A stretch of DNA of 62,934 nt, counting the filler. It is 20 parts of 20 records of this genome, joined end to end, with 100 filler letters (N's around TTAATTAATTAA, not from the genome) between each part and the next. Parts side by side here need not be neighbours in the genome. Positions count along the whole stretch, not along the records: positions 52,202 to 55,268 come from SRR16133337_10502; 19 more parts are not named here. One strand, 5' to 3'. Made by a program: the position numbers and the translations under genes. The notes under the pieces are model-generated. The model was not told the origin of the DNA. It was given only the letters and a program-made list of their open reading frames with translations, and ran no database searches. How positions within the stretch are numbered: the first letter of the stretch is position 1; each line of letters begins with the position of its first letter. Below are positions 7,508-55,368 of this stretch, one piece after another.

Positions 7508-10038
7508 TAAACAGCTGCCAGGTTGGCCCTGCCGAGGCCAAGCTGACCCACAATCAGCTCCCCGTGTGTATCTGTTTCAATAATGTATTAACCGACTAAG
7601 CCCGCTGACCTCAAGCTATATTAATGCGCCGCCTTACACCCTGCACCCCGCACACACCCCCTGCCTTGCAGCAATTAAGCCCCCCAAAGGAGGCCCAGTG
7701 TGCAACTCTCTTTAACCTAGTATTTAAAATTTAAAGCCTCGCCCGAGCCCTTACATCCGCCTACCCTACTTGGTACTAGTGTAAGTGTAACCCCCTAATC
7801 TCCCCAGCCTACACAAACTGGAGGGCCTCAGCCCAACCTAATGACTAAAGACTGATCCCAACTTGACGGGTGTTAACATAGAACGAGTTTCTCGTAACCT
7901 GGCAGCTGTGTCCCGCCAAATCTAGTAGCTTGTTCTGCTTTTGGGTCGTTTAGACCCCTCGCCCCGCGGCCAAACCCAAGCCCGAGCAGAGGCCCACCTC
8001 AATAACTTAAAGAGCCCCGGCCCGCCCGGGCGGGCTAGCCTGACTCGATCTTAAGTACTTAATGCGGAGTTCAGACACACCGAAAGACCCAATAGAACAT
8101 CCTAATTAGCGCGGCTACTGAGGGAGTGTACATGCTAGGCCTATGAAGCGGACCTTCAGTGCTCACATAAATCAGCCAGCCTTCCCTCTTTTAACCCTGC
8201 GCCGCACTAGGGCCTCACTTATAGAGCTTTCGAGCACGGTCGCGCGTTGTCTCCCACACATTAGGCCTATTAAGATGAAGCTTAGCTAAGCCCTTAAGGG
8301 TGCTAGGGCTAAGAATTCTTAATCCTGCTATTTTAGATTAAGGCCTCACCTAAGCCCCTGACCATAAACCTTGGTACTCCAATATAAAATGTGAAACCTT
8401 TTAACCCCCTTGTGGGCCCTAAATAACCATCCCAAGCGTACCTGGGTACTCAGCCCTACCTCAACTTGAGTATTAAATCCCACCTCTAACCTAACCCAAA
8501 GCTCCGAGGGCGGCCCTTGGCACCCCTCTGCACACAATACACCTTTCCCCTCCTCGGGTGCTAAACCCAGACGCATCAAAGGGGTCAAGCGGAGGCCTAG
8601 ATCAAATCTTAACGTATGGCAGGTACAATAACTCACCCCTAAATCATAAAGACCTGCCAACCCCGGCGGCACCAAGAGGCACCCCCGAACCTGACAAGCC
8701 TTTAGAGCCTTTGTATTATCTAACCCCCGCACCCTGTAACCATGGCCGAACCCAGGCCTAGGCCCTGGTGGTGTATTTGCCAACCCTGCGCCCGGAGGTT
8801 AAAACACTTAAACCCGCAAGGGAGGGTCTCGCTAATTCAGACACGCCAGACCTAAAGCGGGGCCGCCACACCTTAGCGGCCCTGCACCCCAGGTAGCTAA
8901 TACACTACATCCTTTAGATAGCTCCTGCTAACCTAAGTGCAGCCACCTCAACCCTGCGAGAGGTCTCCTGGCCTACTTAAAGCAAGCCCCCTCTCGGCGC
9001 GCGAGCTTACACAGACGCCTACCCCCCCCCCCAACTTACGAAGCCGCAGAGCTCCCCTGGCCCAGCGGGGGCCCCCAAGTTTCAAGCAACTCGCACGGAC
9101 CCATGAGAGCTGATCGTCGAGCCATGTCTTATAAAACTGGGAGCCAGGTCAACTAAACCCACAAGACCGGGGGCTTCGCCCCCAATAAACTCCATAAACT
9201 AATATTCTCCAATAATCGCATTAACCGGCTAGCCCCACCACCAAGTCCTGCTAAAACAATCATGCCCACCCACCCAACCCTACCTTGCGGTAATTAAAAA
9301 CCCTCAACTAAGCAGACATTAAGCCTTGATTAAACTAATATAAAAATTCGAGCCCGAACAACAACCCCTCTAGTATAACTAGGCTCACCATCAACCCTGA
9401 CCCCTGGCCGAGGGCTGCGAAATTAGCCCTACGGGTCCGACCAAGGACAACATACGCTATTGCCCTTAGAGGTGACCCGCCACACGAGTGAAGTAGGCCA
9501 ACCGGAGAGGTCAGTATTTTAATTTGACTGTAAGAGGGAAGCAGCTCAACTGTTTATACTCGAGGGGCCCTTTGCACCTCAAAAATCTATACGTGCACAC
9601 GCCCAGCGTTCTCCCAGGTGATAGGCTGGCGCGACCCCGTATGGAGCACCCGGGCTAGGCAGGGGCACATTTGTAATGGGCCCGCCCACTCTAATACTTT
9701 ACTAGGTACCCCATTTGAGACAGGTGTAACCCCAACCCTAGCCACTAAAGCAGGCACAAAAATTATAATCAAATTAGTAAGGCCTCATGAAAGCCCGTAA
9801 GCACTTCGGCATCTTGCCAGACAAGCGCAGGCATACTTAACATCCCCACAGTTTTAAGACACAACTAACACCCCCGGGGTTCAACATAAAGAGGCTCAAG
9901 TAAGCACTAACCTCCCTTCTGGAAAGGGCGTAGCCGACTGGCCTACCCCGTCTCAGGTAAGACAAAGGCAGGGCGCGGCACCTCGGGGCTGTTCACCCCG
10001 CCCAGATGAAAAAAATAGGTGGCTTCCAAAATAGCTGA
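7508..10038 (+). mobile_element. Heavily mutated GC-rich retroelement relic (possible non-LTR endonuclease region near 9200-10010)
   Basis: Whole contig is GC-rich yet dense in TAA/TAG in all frames. Faint ordered AP-endonuclease-like peptides (ILQ.., LAVI.., GEVSILI, KNLYVH, GILNI, SPRPD) occur in shifting frames. Confidence 0.4.
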
Positions 10039-10634
10039 NNNNNNNNNNNNNNNNNNNNNNNNNNNNNNNNNNNNNNNNNNNNTTAATTAATTAANNNNNN
10101 NNNNNNNNNNNNNNNNNNNNNNNNNNNNNNNNNNNNNNCCCGACCCAAATATGCTATAATCGTTCTAGATATCAATGAATAATCCACCACGTAGACACAA
10201 CCACTTGTTCCGCCCCTCAAAAGCACACCCACCATCTACATTCGAAAATTGTAAATGTTAAGCTTATGGGTGTTTTTGCATATAAAAAATTTATGGATTT
10301 CACACTTTCTTTTTCACGCTGTTCGGATTTCGTTTCCATTTCCGTTGTTCATATTTTGAAAGTTAGCAGGATTTTAACGTTTTCACAAGCGAAGCATAAA
10401 ATCTCAACCATTGTTTTGGCATAAATTAAATTACAAATGTTTACATCAATTTTCATTTGTGTTTCAACTTTTATGCCTAAAGTGAATTTTTCGCCAGTAT
10501 AATTTTGCGAGATAACCTAACCCACACCCTCACGTCATTTTGAGAAATGTTCGAAAATAACTACTCTTGAATGGAGTGGATGTAATAATGTATTTGGTAC
10601 GTATTTTCATTTGTGTGCGTGCTTTACATTTTAG

Positions 10635-11151
10635 ATAGATTTTATTCTTTCAGAACCCCACGGGGTAGTGTGTATAGAACGAGGAGATATACATAGCAGA
10701 CAAACAATACGGAATAATGATATATTGTGGCAATATCGGGTAAGGGATGCTTTATTTTTTTGAAGAAATAATTTCCATATTTTTAATTGAAAAACACGTA
10801 TTTCCACAATGAAATACCTATGTTTTATGTTCTGCCTCTATAGAACAATATCCACCTTGTCCAAGTTTATGCACAAAACTCTGTTAGCTCAACTGCAGTC
10901 AGGTATGCATTTTTTCGTTATGATAAATTATGAGATTTTCACCCCTCAGGACAAATAAAATTCAATATGTTTTGTAAAACGTTATATGTACTCGTATCTG
11001 TATACGCATTTACTTACAACAATTGCACTCAGTTTTGGATTTGTGATTTTGTTGTAGAACTTTAATCAAGCGGAAAATGTCGATTAAATACATGGTTCCG
11101 AATGAAGTCATAAGTTACATTGATGAAAATAAACTTTACCAAAATAAATGA
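10635..11151 (+). CDS. NMNAT: Nicotinamide/nicotinate mononucleotide adenylyltransferase, last three exons (10635-10739, 10844-10902, 11058-11151)
   Basis: Spliced translation IDFILSEPHGVVCIERG...NDILWQYR|NNIHLVQVYAQNSVSSTAVR|TLIKRKMSIKYMVPNEVISYIDENKLYQNK* matches the eukaryotic NMNAT C-terminus (ISSTxIR, SIKYLVP, YIxxxxLY). Splice phases are consistent. Confidence 0.88.
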
Positions 11152-52101: not shown

Positions 52102-52220
52102 NNNNNNNNNNNNNNNNNNNNNNNNNNNNNNNNNNNNNNNNNNNNTTAATTAATTAANNNNNNNNNNNNNNNNNNNNNNNNNNNNNNNNNNNNNNNNNNN
52201 NACAATAGGTTAATTTTTAG

Positions 52221-53078
52221 AAGTCCCCTTATGTTACAACGCCAACGCCTATAGAATTCGCTTACCATTTAAAAAAGTGGCTCGCACGTTCGGTAAAATG
52301 TCTGCTTATAGATGGTTATTTCAACAAACAAGCGTTTATTCTAACCGATAAAGGAAAGGGGCAAAACATTGGTAAATCTCATTTTACTAAATGGTTGTGT
52401 CCCCCATCGCTTCCGCTCAATCGTTCTTTTGAAGATTCAAAAAAAGACAATTTAATTAAGCTTGCAACAAACGCCTTTATAATTTTGGACGAATTAGATG
52501 GAATTTCAAGAAAGGATTTAAATAGTTTAAAAGCGTTGTTTTCAATGGACGAAATTAGAGTGCGTTTACCTTATGCAAGACGCGAAGAAACGGTACAAAG
52601 AACCGCCAATTTTATAGGTTCAACCAACGAAGAAAACTTTTTAAACGACCCAACAGGCTCGGTGCGTTGGCTTGTTTTTGATGTTACCGCAATAAATTGG
52701 GAATATTCTAAAAAAATGGATATAAACGACATCTGGAGTCAAGCTTACGCTTTGGCTAAAGATGTAAATTTTGATGAAACATTTACCAAAGAAGATGTAA
52801 AAAACAACGAATTACGTAATGAAACCTAGCAAATAAGATCACCTGAGGCTGAGATGATTAGTTTACTTTATGAAGTTCCAAACGAAAAAAACAAACATAA
52901 AGTTGTTTTTCTTACCTCTACGGAAATATTAATTTATTTAAAGTGTAATTCAAACCTTAACAGGCTTTCACCGGTTTCGGTTGGTAAAGCTTTAAAACTT
53001 TTAAAATTTGAACGTGTAAAAAAGAACGGTGTTTACGGTTATAACGTTGTACAAACTAAAAGAGTTTTAGGAGCATAA
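52221..53078 (+). pseudogene. vapE: VapE-like (virulence-associated E) helicase, N-terminally truncated with an in-frame TAG at 52827
   Basis: KKWLARSV, Walker A GQNIGKS, ILDELDG, RLPYARR, FIGSTN, FLNDPTGSVRW; the frame continues past the TAG (NET*QIRSPEAEMISLLY...) into a wHTH-like tail. Confidence 0.85.
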
Positions 53079-53121
53079 AACCAAGCCTTTTCGATAAAAG
53101 TCAACCTAAAATATTTTAAAA

Positions 53122-53319
53122 ATGAAACTATCAAGCGAACAAAAAACAGCGGTTTTAACGTGCGTAAATGACCTCGAAAATTATTATGCAACTTGCGGAA
53201 ACGATTTAGATTTTCAAAATTTAGAAATTTTCAAAATTCATTTAAACACCATACAGTTAAACCTTGAAAACATTGAGGTTGTGGCGGATTTTGTGAGCGT
53301 TTCAAACAGCAAAAAATAA
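53122..53319 (+). CDS. Small hypothetical protein
   Basis: 65-aa ORF with an A-rich leader between vapE and the repeat array. Confidence 0.55.
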   Translation: MKLSSEQKTAVLTCVNDLENYYATCGNDLDFQNLEIFKIHLNTIQLNLENIEVVADFVSVSNSKK

Positions 53320-53336
53320 ATAAACCATGAAAGCAT

Positions 53337-53542
53337 CTTACCCAACTTACCCAAAGTATAACAATACTAATAAAATCAAAGCCCTAAACGAGGTAAGTAA
53401 GTGCAAAAAGCATCCTACCCTACCCTATCTTACCCAATCTTACCTTTAGCCAAATGTAAAAGGGTAACTTGGGGTAACTTTGGATAAGAGGGTTTTTTAT
53501 CTTACCCACCGCATTCTCACTGGATGGGGTAAGATGGGTAAC
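53337..53542. repeat. Iteron-like array (putative replication origin)
   Basis: About 13 copies of (C)TTACCC / GGGTAA(G/C) in both orientations, many spaced 9-10 nt apart. Confidence 0.7.
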
Positions 53543-53607
53543 TTTTTTTTACGTTTCGAGCAAAAAAAAATAAAAAATTAGTGTGAAATTTTAAAACCTA
53601 AAAAAAA

Positions 53608-55121
53608 ATGTTAGTTAAACAGTTTCATTACATATCAAAAGATGAAAGTTTAAAACTTTTAAACTCTATTGAAAACATAAAATACAAAGTGATTGTTTTA
53701 TTGATGCTCGATTGTGGATTAAGAGTGTCCGAAGCTTGCTCTTTAAAATTCAAAAACTTCGATTTCAAAAACCGACTACTCACAATTCAATCTTTAAAGA
53801 AAAAAGGCAAAAAACATTTGCGTACAATTCCTATATCTGACAGACTATACCGTCAATTGGGTACCTATTTGAATTCTAAAAATCTAATTTTTGAAAAAGA
53901 CAGTTTTTTATTTCCCTCAAAATCTTGGGAGGGCTATTTAGGTAGAAAGGCAGTTTGGAAGTTCCTCAATAGCTTAAAAGGAAAACTGTTGATTGAAAAT
54001 TTACACCCTCACGCTCTAAGACATTCTTTTGCAACGCACCACTTGTCTGCAGGTTCATCTTTGGAAGAAATTAAAGTAATGTTGGGGCATAAATCGTACA
54101 ATACTACATTAATTTATGCAGAAATTCCCACCGATAAACTAAAAGAGCACGTCAATGCTCTTACCTACTCCCCTCCTACTGTTTGGCAAAGAATTTATTG
54201 TTTTTTCATTCCAAAACCCAAAACAAAACTGATCAATCTAAATTTTACAGAAAACTATTACAGTATCGGTAGAAATGAAGAATTAAAGAACTTGAACGCA
54301 AACATAGAAAAAGGCGTAAATACTTTGGTACTTGGTAAAATTGGCACAGGAAAAACACATTTATTGCAAAACATTGAAACCAAAAGAAAAATACTTCGTA
54401 TCGATGATTCTGAATCCATAAAAAAAACATTGGCTCAAATTCTATTGCATTTTCATGAAAAAAAAGAAACGGTAATTTCATTGCTCTGGAAAGATTTCAC
54501 AAAAGATGAAATCAACAAAAAAATTCAACGCGAGAATATCGCAAACCTTTGCGATACTATAAAAGCTTCCGTAAAACCAAACGATTATATTTTAATCATT
54601 GATGACATGACAAGCATCACTCCTACTGCAAAAAAAGCAATTGAAAAATTAAAAGATACATTTATAATCATTGCTGGGGCACGTGAAATAAAAGCGAACA
54701 ATACTTCATTTCTTTGGAATTTTGAAAGATTGGATTTAAAACCTTTAAACCGTAGATATTCAATGCAATTAATCAATCAACTTTCTAGTGGTTTGGAGGT
54801 AGAAAAAAAGGAGGTTTTCTTAAATCATATTTATGATCAAACAAATGGAAACCCCAGGGCAATTACAGAATTAATAAACAGATACAAAAAAGAACCTTTT
54901 TTAGATGTTCAAACCATCAAAGAAATAAAACACACAGGTGCATTGCATGAGTTTGATATGACCTGGTTGGTTATCGTGTTTTTAGGCTGTTTAACAGCAC
55001 TTCGATATTTAGCGAGGGAGTTTAGGACGAACCTGCGTTAAGATTCATTGGTAGCATCGCTATGGTAGTTCTAATCATGTTTCGACCACTCATGAGAAGT
55101 TTAAAAAGAACTTTTATTTAA
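53608..55121 (+). CDS. Tyrosine recombinase catalytic domain fused to a P-loop (AAA-like) ATPase and C-terminal TM helices; frameshift near 55021-55026
   Basis: YR residues GLRVSE, HALRH and LGH...TLIY are intact; Walker A GKIGTGKT, Walker B LIIDD, GNPR; TM WLVIVFLGCLTALRY. The ORF stops at 55041, but an alternative frame continues DEPALRFIGSIAMVVLIMFRPLMRSLKRTFI* to 55121. Confidence 0.85.
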
Positions 55122-55368
55122 TTGTCGTAAAAAACAGTTTTGGAAGGTAGACAAAATAAATATTTTGTCGCCGCACGCCCTCCCCAAATAAGACATTATA
55201 TCACTCAAAATCATCAAATCTATGAAAAATGAAAAGACTGTATATTTTATAAATAACTTTAGTAATCANNNNNNNNNNNNNNNNNNNNNNNNNNNNNNNN
55301 NNNNNNNNNNNNTTAATTAATTAANNNNNNNNNNNNNNNNNNNNNNNNNNNNNNNNNNNNNNNNNNNN

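Follow-up and report, generated by a model that had tools for sequence, protein, structure and literature searches.

Tyrosine recombinases (YRs) are thought to need a core-binding domain for clamping DNA. In the FtsK-XerCD system the catalytic state of an Xer-type recombinase is under the control of an ATPase anchored in the membrane, and ATPases like TnsC and MuB are classic examples of factors that license enzymes to cut DNA. There are also three YR-type relaxases, MobK (pIGRK), TcpM (pCW3) and MpsA (SGI1), which two reports describe as having no core- or arm-binding domains and as carrying other N- or C-terminal additions (PMC8152469, PMC9299015); MobK is stated there to nick its own oriT via Tyr179 (PMC8152469, PMC9299015) and the three relaxases not to be alike in sequence (PMC8152469). 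We analyzed a 62,934-nucleotide stretch of DNA (the window, filler included) in which one gene, referred to here as the YR-ATPase gene, encodes a catalytic-only YR, a P-loop ATPase and a two-helix membrane anchor. This architecture had been proposed from the letters of the window alone (the original prediction); it is real and it holds across homologues. The component folds are known; their combination, and the module of membrane proteins with which it travels, are undescribed.

The N-terminal domain of the window protein is a member of the tyrosine recombinase superfamily. Pfam Phage_integrase (PF00589) matched residues 9–172 to profile positions 3–167 of 172 (E 2.3e-33, 115.8 bits, cut-off 27.1), and the catalytic residues could be placed at R39 (in GLRVSE), K64, H135-A-L-R138-H, H161 and Y170, in agreement with the predicted full R-HxxR-H-Y set starting near residue 1. 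The best sequence and fold matches of this domain are the Xer-type enzymes (XerA, XerC/XerD, XerH) and IntI, which have the same R-K-HxxR-H-Y set. With NCBIfam, XerA scored 129.7 bits (cut-off 220), XerD 113.3 bits (cut-off 329.6) and XerC 102.1 bits (cut-off 335.15), none of these equivalog cut-offs being reached, and the matches covered only profile positions 95–261 of 263, 122–285 of 290 and 123–284 of 295, respectively. The model for 'tyrosine-type DNA invertase' gave a weak match (37.3 bits, cut-off 221).

An AlphaFold (AF2) model was made for a homologue 70% identical to the window protein, from a 27-sequence alignment (mean pLDDT 76). Its residues 4–184 align with residues 100–273 of XerA (VIA Z 20.0, root-mean-square deviation [rmsd] 2.8, 167 residues) and its residues 3–172 with IntI 100–304 and Cre 130–326; the solved recombinases align to the model only from their residue ~100–186 onward. 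Because the Xer profiles match only from their position 95–131 onward, and because residue 3–4 of the model faces residue ~100 of XerA and IntI and ~130 of Cre, the recombinase, which begins at residue ~4–9, is catalytic-domain-only and lacks a core-binding domain. The profile starts and the structural alignment thus concur with the earlier view that there is no room for such a domain at the N-terminus. Xer-type enzymes differ from the YR-ATPase in having this domain of ~100 residues, whereas the YR-ATPase adds an ATPase and a membrane hairpin. FimB and FimE are likewise short tyrosine recombinases (~200 aa) with almost no N-terminal domain, but they have neither ATPase nor anchor and are found in another genetic context.

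The recombinase continues in the same frame into the ATPase and then into a hydrophobic helix, just as had been proposed. The Walker A motif GKIGTGKT occupies residues 243–250 (54334–54357), the Walker B motif LIIDD residues 329–333 (54592–54606), and GNPRAI residues 414–419, with GNPR (414–417) at 54847–54858. The assignment of an ATPase is based on these motifs, on the family alignment and on the fold, because the Pfam matches of the window copy (AAA_16, ATPase_2, AAA_22 and NB-ARC) were all weak and under the gathering cut-off. NB-ARC, for example, scored 16.3 bits for the window copy and 32.7 bits for the homologue P0082 (gathering cut-off 23.5). For model residues ~213–456 the best VIA fold matches were about equal across several groups: the plant NB-ARC protein NRC3 (Z 16.1, rmsd 3.3, 208 residues), archaeal Cdc6/Orc1 (Z 15.9), TnsC of a CAST transposon (Z 15.1, 216 of 257 residues aligned) and MuB (Z 14.5, 213 of 235 residues aligned), together with Apaf-1 and RFC. 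Foldseek returned the same mixture, and when the ATPase profile was compared with PDB sequences no match came under E 0.2. From the model we class the ATPase as a putative AAA+/STAND-type switch of the ORC/Cdc6-STAND-TnsC-MuB fold group; the Z scores of TnsC and MuB are tied with those of NB-ARC and ORC/Cdc6, and no one clade of the group is preferred.

The final helix of the ATPase runs to ~426 in the model and is followed by membrane helices at residues 452–472 and 476–497, both of which are hydrophobic in homologues. The proteins stop at ~503 aa, and there is no winged-helix domain, C-terminal sensor or repeat region in the AF2 model; since the anchor directly follows the ATPase, there is no space for them. 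STAND NTPases (NB-ARC/NLR, Apaf-1/CED-4 and bacterial Avs) have a nucleotide-binding domain and a helical domain with a GxP-like motif, which the YR-ATPase may share (GNPR), and likewise have an effector-type domain at the N-terminus; they differ from it in that the YR-ATPase family has the membrane hairpin only, without winged-helix domain or C-terminal sensor repeats. The suggestion that the protein is STAND-like therefore survives at the level of the fold, where it is tied with ORC/Cdc6, TnsC and MuB, while the winged-helix/sensor part of a STAND protein is absent.

The same architecture is widespread in sequence databases. A word-indexed search found 669 homologous proteins at E ≤ 0.001; among the best 120 of these, 112 are 496–506 aa long and in frame and eight are 420–472 aa. 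In the sources they are named only 'tyrosine-type recombinase/integrase', 'XerC/XerD' or 'hypothetical'. Across 27 homologues (46–71% identity to the first), R39, K64, H135, R138, H161 and Y170 are invariant, as are the GxGK of Walker A, the Walker B Asp, R359 and GNPR. When the ATPase-anchor part by itself was searched exhaustively with phmmer against 50%-identity representatives, 376 matched at E ≤ 0.001, of which 204 reached E ≤ 1e-10. Among the best 150 of these representatives, 98 have the recombinase domain according to our own hidden Markov model, ~18 are complete stand-alone ATPase-anchor proteins of 280–350 aa, and seven have an unrecognised N-terminal extension of 75–320 aa with no Pfam match above cut-off; the remainder are fragments. 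Longer fused forms (836–2385 aa) were not found, which is weak evidence. The fusion also occurs in Spirochaetota (a Thiospirochaeta plasmid) and in a Margulisiibacteriota-labelled cluster, and the ATPase without a recombinase occurs in Proteobacteria, Thermus and Synechocystis pSYSX. In Bacteroidota the in-frame recombinase-ATPase fusion is the dominant form.

The window itself comes from a rough assembly: its contigs are of 2–7 kb, the next contig opens with what is left of an adapter, and there are two lesions within 3 kb. All of this could suggest that the fusion arose through faulty assembly or through a chance local joining of two genes. We regard this as practically untenable, since the same single reading frame recurs in hundreds of independent sequences (NCBI, JGI, ENA and Logan), complete plasmids and closed chromosomes among them, and an artefact is thereby refuted. 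The possibility, raised with the original prediction, that the YR and the ATPase would prove to occur only as separate genes is answered in the same way. The original prediction knew of no characterized membrane-tethered YR-ATPase, and no such family was found in the literature searched, Pfam, NCBIfam or PADLOC: no model in these three collections covers the YR-ATPase architecture, neither it nor the module is described in the literature searched (supplementary tables not covered), and the passages of PMC4158269 and PMC7159879 retrieved by term search contain no description of it. Tyrosine recombinases being thought to depend on their core-binding domain, hundreds of natural proteins that put an ATP switch and a membrane anchor in its place point to an unstudied way of regulating or localising DNA cleavage.

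In collections of species-representative genomes the family appears to be rare. Genome sampling, in which the three to four best candidates per genome were scored, gave matches to the protein query at 1e-20 in 25 of 401 Bacteroidota genomes; 24 of the 25 matched residues up to 194 only and are, judging from this N-terminal restriction, ordinary integrases. The family profile matched one of 401 genomes of the taxonomic family, which was the centre genome itself. Among the other genomes sampled, the YR-ATPase family was thus detected in 0 of 400 from the phylum and 0 of 400 from the family, and a contig scan of genomes identified one YR-ATPase locus. Scans of metagenomes and a first scan of viral sequences, both with generic recombinase motifs, returned ordinary integrases only; with ATPase-specific motifs, 0 of 115 candidate stretches in the viral collection were confirmed, and the phage records searched held no YR-ATPase match.

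This distribution bears on the idea that the protein is a STAND-type defence or exclusion system, in which the ATPase would sense an invader and the recombinase would cut DNA and/or a membrane partner resembling phospholipase C or nuclease P1 (the YdjM-type protein described below) would damage the membrane. The resemblance of the ATPase to NB-ARC/NLR proteins (Z 16.1) and the one homologue that passes the NB-ARC gathering score (32.7 vs 23.5) are in keeping with it, as are weak nSTAND and mad8/PtuA P-loop matches, a weak zinc phospholipase C match of the Thermus YdjM partner, and the toxin-antitoxin pairs, dGTPase and Cap4-nuclease plus SMC-like pair among the neighbours of relatives. Yet PADLOC-DB 2.0 recognised nothing beyond the P-loop (mad8, 27 bits on residues 222–256; PtuA, 16.1 bits) and matched the YdjM partners to 0 families; the anchor comes directly after the ATPase in place of any winged-helix or repeat sensor region; and relatives do not carry other recognisable effectors in place of the N-terminal domain. 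The family is also missing from the 400 other phylum and 400 other family genomes and from the phage records searched, and it sits with replication backbones, not in defence islands. We consider a defence role improbable, and the sensor-effector idea of the original prediction found little support: only the weak PADLOC P-loop matches, with no phage or viral match, no effector swapping and a replication backbone as context.

The copy in the window has been damaged. Residues 1–473 of its open reading frame (ORF) are 64% identical to an intact 504-aa protein of Aureibaculum, after which it ends at a premature TAA, caused by a frameshift. Five full-length homologues end RYLARE(L/M)DEP(A/S)LRFIG, a second hydrophobic helix, (RPL) and KR.F, whereas the window reads RYLAREF and its other frame continues DEPALRFIGSIAMVVLIMFRPLMRSLKRTFI to a stop at 55121. 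This displaced tail is 58% identical to residues 474–504 of the Aureibaculum protein. When the Aureibaculum gene (GAGTTAGACGAACC) is set against the window (GAGTTTAGGACGAACC), the window is longer by two bases, inserted at ~55021–55026, which explains the earlier observation that a second helix and a basic tail lie in the adjacent frame. Programmed frameshifting was considered and rejected, because the homologues carry the gene in frame. A second lesion, an in-frame TAG at 52827–52829, lies in the primase-vapE fragment upstream, at a position that is Tyr in the Aureibaculum homologue. With two lesions in the 3 kb of this contig (the frameshift and the vapE nonsense codon), either the element is decaying or the assembly is poor. 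Since the frameshift removes the second helix and the vapE neighbour has a nonsense codon, the window copy of the YR-ATPase is probably inactive, unless the lesions are assembly errors.

The partner genes of the family were identified on plasmids. The ATPase part is present in 12 plasmid records, of which 11 were viewed (Nitrosococcus oceani was left out); in all 11 a gene for a 'metal-dependent hydrolase' lies within 5 kb on the same strand (Table 1). Pfam YdjM was confirmed in all five loci scanned, and for the other six plasmids the YdjM assignment is the record name, with tblastn support for four of these. The Aureibaculum locus, which is chromosomal, likewise has a YdjM-type gene within 5 kb. 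Indirect support for the pairing also comes from contig sizes: between the top 119 YR-ATPase and the top 119 YdjM-partner homologues, the sizes of the longest contigs were identical 27 times, with ~1 expected by chance. A C-terminally anchored AAA-type ATPase beside a YdjM-type membrane hydrolase is therefore a conserved module of the YR-ATPase family. The cyanobacterial plasmid pSYSX has no recombinase with its ATPase-YdjM pair, and the gene after the pair encodes a DUF87/HerA-type ATPase.

In the YdjM partner, H6, D43, D45, H68, H73, H112 and D116 are invariant among 29 sequences, forming a set of metal-ligand His/Asp residues. Its model (pLDDT 83) has a helical membrane domain (1–195), a beta domain (197–317) and a long helical hairpin (322–414). 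Foldseek gave nothing at E ≤ 0.001 for this model, and among the many unrelated VIA rows were LipC (Z 8.5) and MacA (Z 7.9). The zinc phospholipase C match of the Thermus partner mentioned above scored 24.6 bits (cut-off 26.8). A small OEP/TolC-repeat protein was recognised in Thermus (46.5 bits), at the Aureibaculum locus (23.9), on pA5BP1 (20.3) and on Aureibaculum contig C35 (17.9; cut-off 22), and signal-peptide-like N-termini are visible on the OEP-like proteins. Both this small secreted protein and a small lipoprotein are frequent companions of the YR-ATPase. The Aureibaculum genome has at least two further copies of the module on short contigs, and on one of these, C35, the replication and regulation backbone differs from the vapE backbone (Table 1); RteC and HTH_17 genes, as found there, are typical of Bacteroidota transfer elements. 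All of the plasmids holding the two genes in two sets (12 of 12 and 34 of 34) are typed as 'non-mobilizable', meaning that they have no known relaxase. The gene marks an unnamed membrane module, found across phyla on plasmids and integrated elements without known transfer genes.

Our favoured reading, held tentatively and with less than even confidence, is that the YR-ATPase carries out ATP-gated nicking or recombination of its element's own DNA at the membrane, in a relaxase-like manner linked to DNA passage. The reaction would take place at the inner membrane, on DNA of the element itself. On binding ATP, the ATPase part would oligomerise or bind DNA and, standing in for the missing core-binding clamp, would switch on cleavage by Tyr170. 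The recombinase domain would then nick and hold the DNA and the anchored ATPase would couple it to passage through the envelope, so that the whole would resemble a core-domain-less recombinase-type relaxase (MobK, TcpM or MpsA) joined to a coupling ATPase. By the description of these relaxases in PMC8152469, the YR-ATPase is like them in being a catalytic-only YR on a mobile element. They differ from it in being soluble, in having no ATPase and in relying on the coupling protein and type IV system of a helper.

A relaxase-like role is favoured because the partners resemble components of an assembly that spans the envelope. DNA passage would be the single reading that uses all the parts, because a DNA enzyme is fused to the cytoplasmic ATPase of an envelope protein set and, in cyanobacteria, is replaced by a HerA-type ATPase; DNA processing coupled to export would also fit the YdjM-type protein, the TolC/OEP-like protein and the lipoprotein. 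Tripartite exporters (type I secretion, MacAB-TolC and EmrAB-TolC) are similar to the module in combining an inner-membrane ATPase-associated unit with a long-hairpin protein and a TolC/OEP-like protein; they differ in that the ATPase of the module is not an ABC ATPase and its OEP-like protein is at most half the size of TolC. A more specific proposal, which we rate as unlikely, is that the module is a compact DNA-transfer machine without a classical relaxase or type IV secretion system, in which the fused protein would serve as relaxase and coupling ATPase, its recombinase domain cutting the DNA of the element, which would then enter a conduit formed by the YdjM hairpin protein and the small TolC-like protein. 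If the module does move DNA, many 'non-mobilizable' plasmids would need to be reclassified, and the movement would be between Gram-negative cells.

Several observations weigh against this reading. By sequence and by fold, the YR domain is closest to true recombinases (XerA, XerH and IntI). The ATPase found no match of the FtsK/HerA/VirD4 type, which is the type of known DNA-transfer systems, among its Pfam matches or 50 VIA rows, although the fold is not excluded thereby. In a wide VIA comparison the hairpin of the YdjM partner matched generic coiled coils only, and nothing significant in Foldseek, while the OEP matches are marginal in Bacteroidota. Being typed 'non-mobilizable' is in any case common among these taxa. 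The module is always near replication genes, which a maintenance role would suit equally well, and the Aureibaculum chromosomal contig has no other YR, which fits the role of an integrase. In the window there is neither a YdjM nor an OEP gene, the contig ending 147 bp after the YR-ATPase gene.

These points lead to the other explanation of some weight, that the YR-ATPase is the element's own site-specific recombinase for integration/excision or multimer resolution, in which the ATPase would replace the core-binding domain and gate synapsis, and the anchor and YdjM would localise or time the reaction. The YR domain is nearest to Xer recombinases (XerA 129.7 bits, XerD 113.3 bits; VIA Z 20.0) and keeps the full catalytic set; besides the YR-ATPase, no recombinase is annotated on the 14.4-kb pA5BP1 and no YR match was found on the 396-kb Aureibaculum contig; and the module adjoins replication genes in the window, at the Aureibaculum loci L004 and C35/C39 and on several plasmids. 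TnsC and MuB, which align to the ATPase over nearly their whole length, are comparable as ATP-dependent DNA-binding switches licensing a DNA-cutting enzyme, but are separate soluble proteins serving DDE transposases. Similarly, FtsK-XerCD resembles the YR-ATPase in that an anchored ATPase governs an Xer-type recombinase, whereas FtsK is a separate protein, a translocase of the RecA fold that is anchored at its N-terminus, and the YR-ATPase is AAA+/STAND-like, fused and anchored at its C-terminus. A role as recombinase only would leave unexplained the co-travelling secreted OEP-like protein, lipoprotein and polytopic metallohydrolase, as well as the ATPase-YdjM pair without recombinase in Proteobacteria, Thermus and cyanobacteria, and neither att-type direct repeats nor a tRNA target were found around the Aureibaculum copy. 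We judge this explanation to be almost as probable as the relaxase-like reading, which remains the one that we prefer. Should the module resolve or integrate DNA, it would provide in a single chain the kind of control that FtsK exerts over Xer or TnsC over a transposase, and a recombinase regulated in this way would be interesting as a tool.

The gene adjoins a vapE replicon. The window consists of 20 small contigs of ~2–7 kb each, joined by 19 linkers of the form N44-TTAATTAATTAA-N44 (at 2046, 4525, ... 59922), and genes across a linker are not neighbours in the organism; the true genomic context of the YR-ATPase gene is contig 52202–55268 alone (3,067 bp). Because this contig ends at 55268, 147 bp past the gene, the YdjM-type partner is not visible for the window copy. 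The contig begins within a primase-vapE gene, the fragment of which is 78% identical to residues 424–704 of the 738-aa Aureibaculum primase-VapE, followed by a small ORF and a repeat array (Table 1), so that the vapE replicon and iteron-like repeats noticed earlier do adjoin the YR-ATPase gene on the same contig. A homologous array of nine repeats lies just after vapE at Aureibaculum L004 7088–7270. Since the array was present in the two vapE loci only and absent from YR-ATPase loci without vapE, and directly follows vapE in L004, we interpret it as probably the origin iterons of the VapE replicon. It was also considered as a recombination or oriT site of the recombinase, which was rejected because the array tracks with vapE and not with the YR-ATPase. 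The window and L004 arrays each come with a CCTACCCTACCC stretch, and the two loci differ in the position of the array relative to the small ORFs. There is no tRNA around the Aureibaculum copy and there are no convincing att-type direct repeats, and the borders of that element are not definable; relatives from the same genus share a neighbouring 678-aa gene only.

Table 1. Features of the window contig with the YR-ATPase gene, and related loci.
Feature or locus	Position	Strand	Basis or remark
Primase-VapE gene, 3' part, cut by contig start	52221–53078	+	Pfam VapE-like, 1.9e-23
Small conserved ORF, 65 aa	53122–53319	+	60% identity to 62-aa ORF in same position class, Aureibaculum L004; no Pfam match
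GGGTAA(C/G)/TTACCC repeat array, both orientations	53327–53545		8 of the window's 14 GGGTAAS matches
YR-ATPase main reading frame, 477 aa	53608–55041	+	ORF call; ends at premature TAA
Xer-like tyrosine recombinase catalytic domain, residues 9–172	53632–54123	+	Pfam, NCBIfam, VIA, conservation
AAA+/STAND-like P-loop ATPase, residues ~220–440	54265–54927	+	Weak Pfam, invariant motifs, fold
First hydrophobic (transmembrane) helix, residues 451–469	54958–55014	+	Homologue hydropathy, AF2 helix 452–472
Frameshift site, two extra bases vs intact homologues (GAGTTTAGGACG vs GAGTTAGACG)	55019–55027	+	Alignment to homologues
Displaced C-terminal tail: DEPALRFIG, second hydrophobic helix, basic end	55026–55121	+	Stop 55119–55121
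Aureibaculum gene order			OEP-like 239 aa, primase-VapE 738 aa, repeat array, small ORFs incl. lipoprotein-like, YR-ATPase 504 aa, two small ORFs, YdjM 445 aa
Further Aureibaculum copy	contig C35, 1369–4059		RteC (6e-53), HTH_17, 238-aa protein, DnaC/IstB-like ATPase, OEP-like, YR-ATPase
pA5BP1			Hydrolase within 5 kb of ATPase part
Spirosoma pTS			Hydrolase within 5 kb of ATPase part
Methylobacter plasmid			Hydrolase within 5 kb of ATPase part
pHALHY02 and pHALHY01			Hydrolase within 5 kb of ATPase part
Flammeovirga plasmid			Hydrolase within 5 kb, split in two
pALVIN01			Hydrolase within 5 kb of ATPase part
pNWAT01 and pNHAL01			Two small genes between ATPase and hydrolase in each
Thiospirochaeta plasmid			Hydrolase ~4 kb off, IS110 between
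Thermus pTCCB09			Hydrolase within 5 kb of ATPase part

The contigs on either side of this one in the window were also viewed. The next contig begins (55369–55386) with CGACGCTCTTCCGATCT, presumably a leftover sequencing-adapter end and thus a sign of a rough assembly. The preceding contig (49911–52101) has several short tandem repeats and no ORF longer than ~120 aa, and does not look like ordinary bacterial coding sequence.

Other genes were observed around the relatives of the module. On Thermus pTCCB09 (8186–8666) and on pSYSX (10224–10895), only a few genes separate the ATPase-YdjM pair from a gene of the thermonuclease family, which may be another loose associate of the module. The Nitrosococcus sister plasmids differ in the genes between the ATPase and YdjM, which are a small gene and a MazF-type toxin in one and DUF6883 and DUF4926 in the other. 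Beside the Aureibaculum element (L004 14257–17072) are genes for an SMC_N-type ATPase (weak match) and a protein with a Cap4 nuclease domain (5e-30), which we take to resemble a Lamassu-type defence pair.

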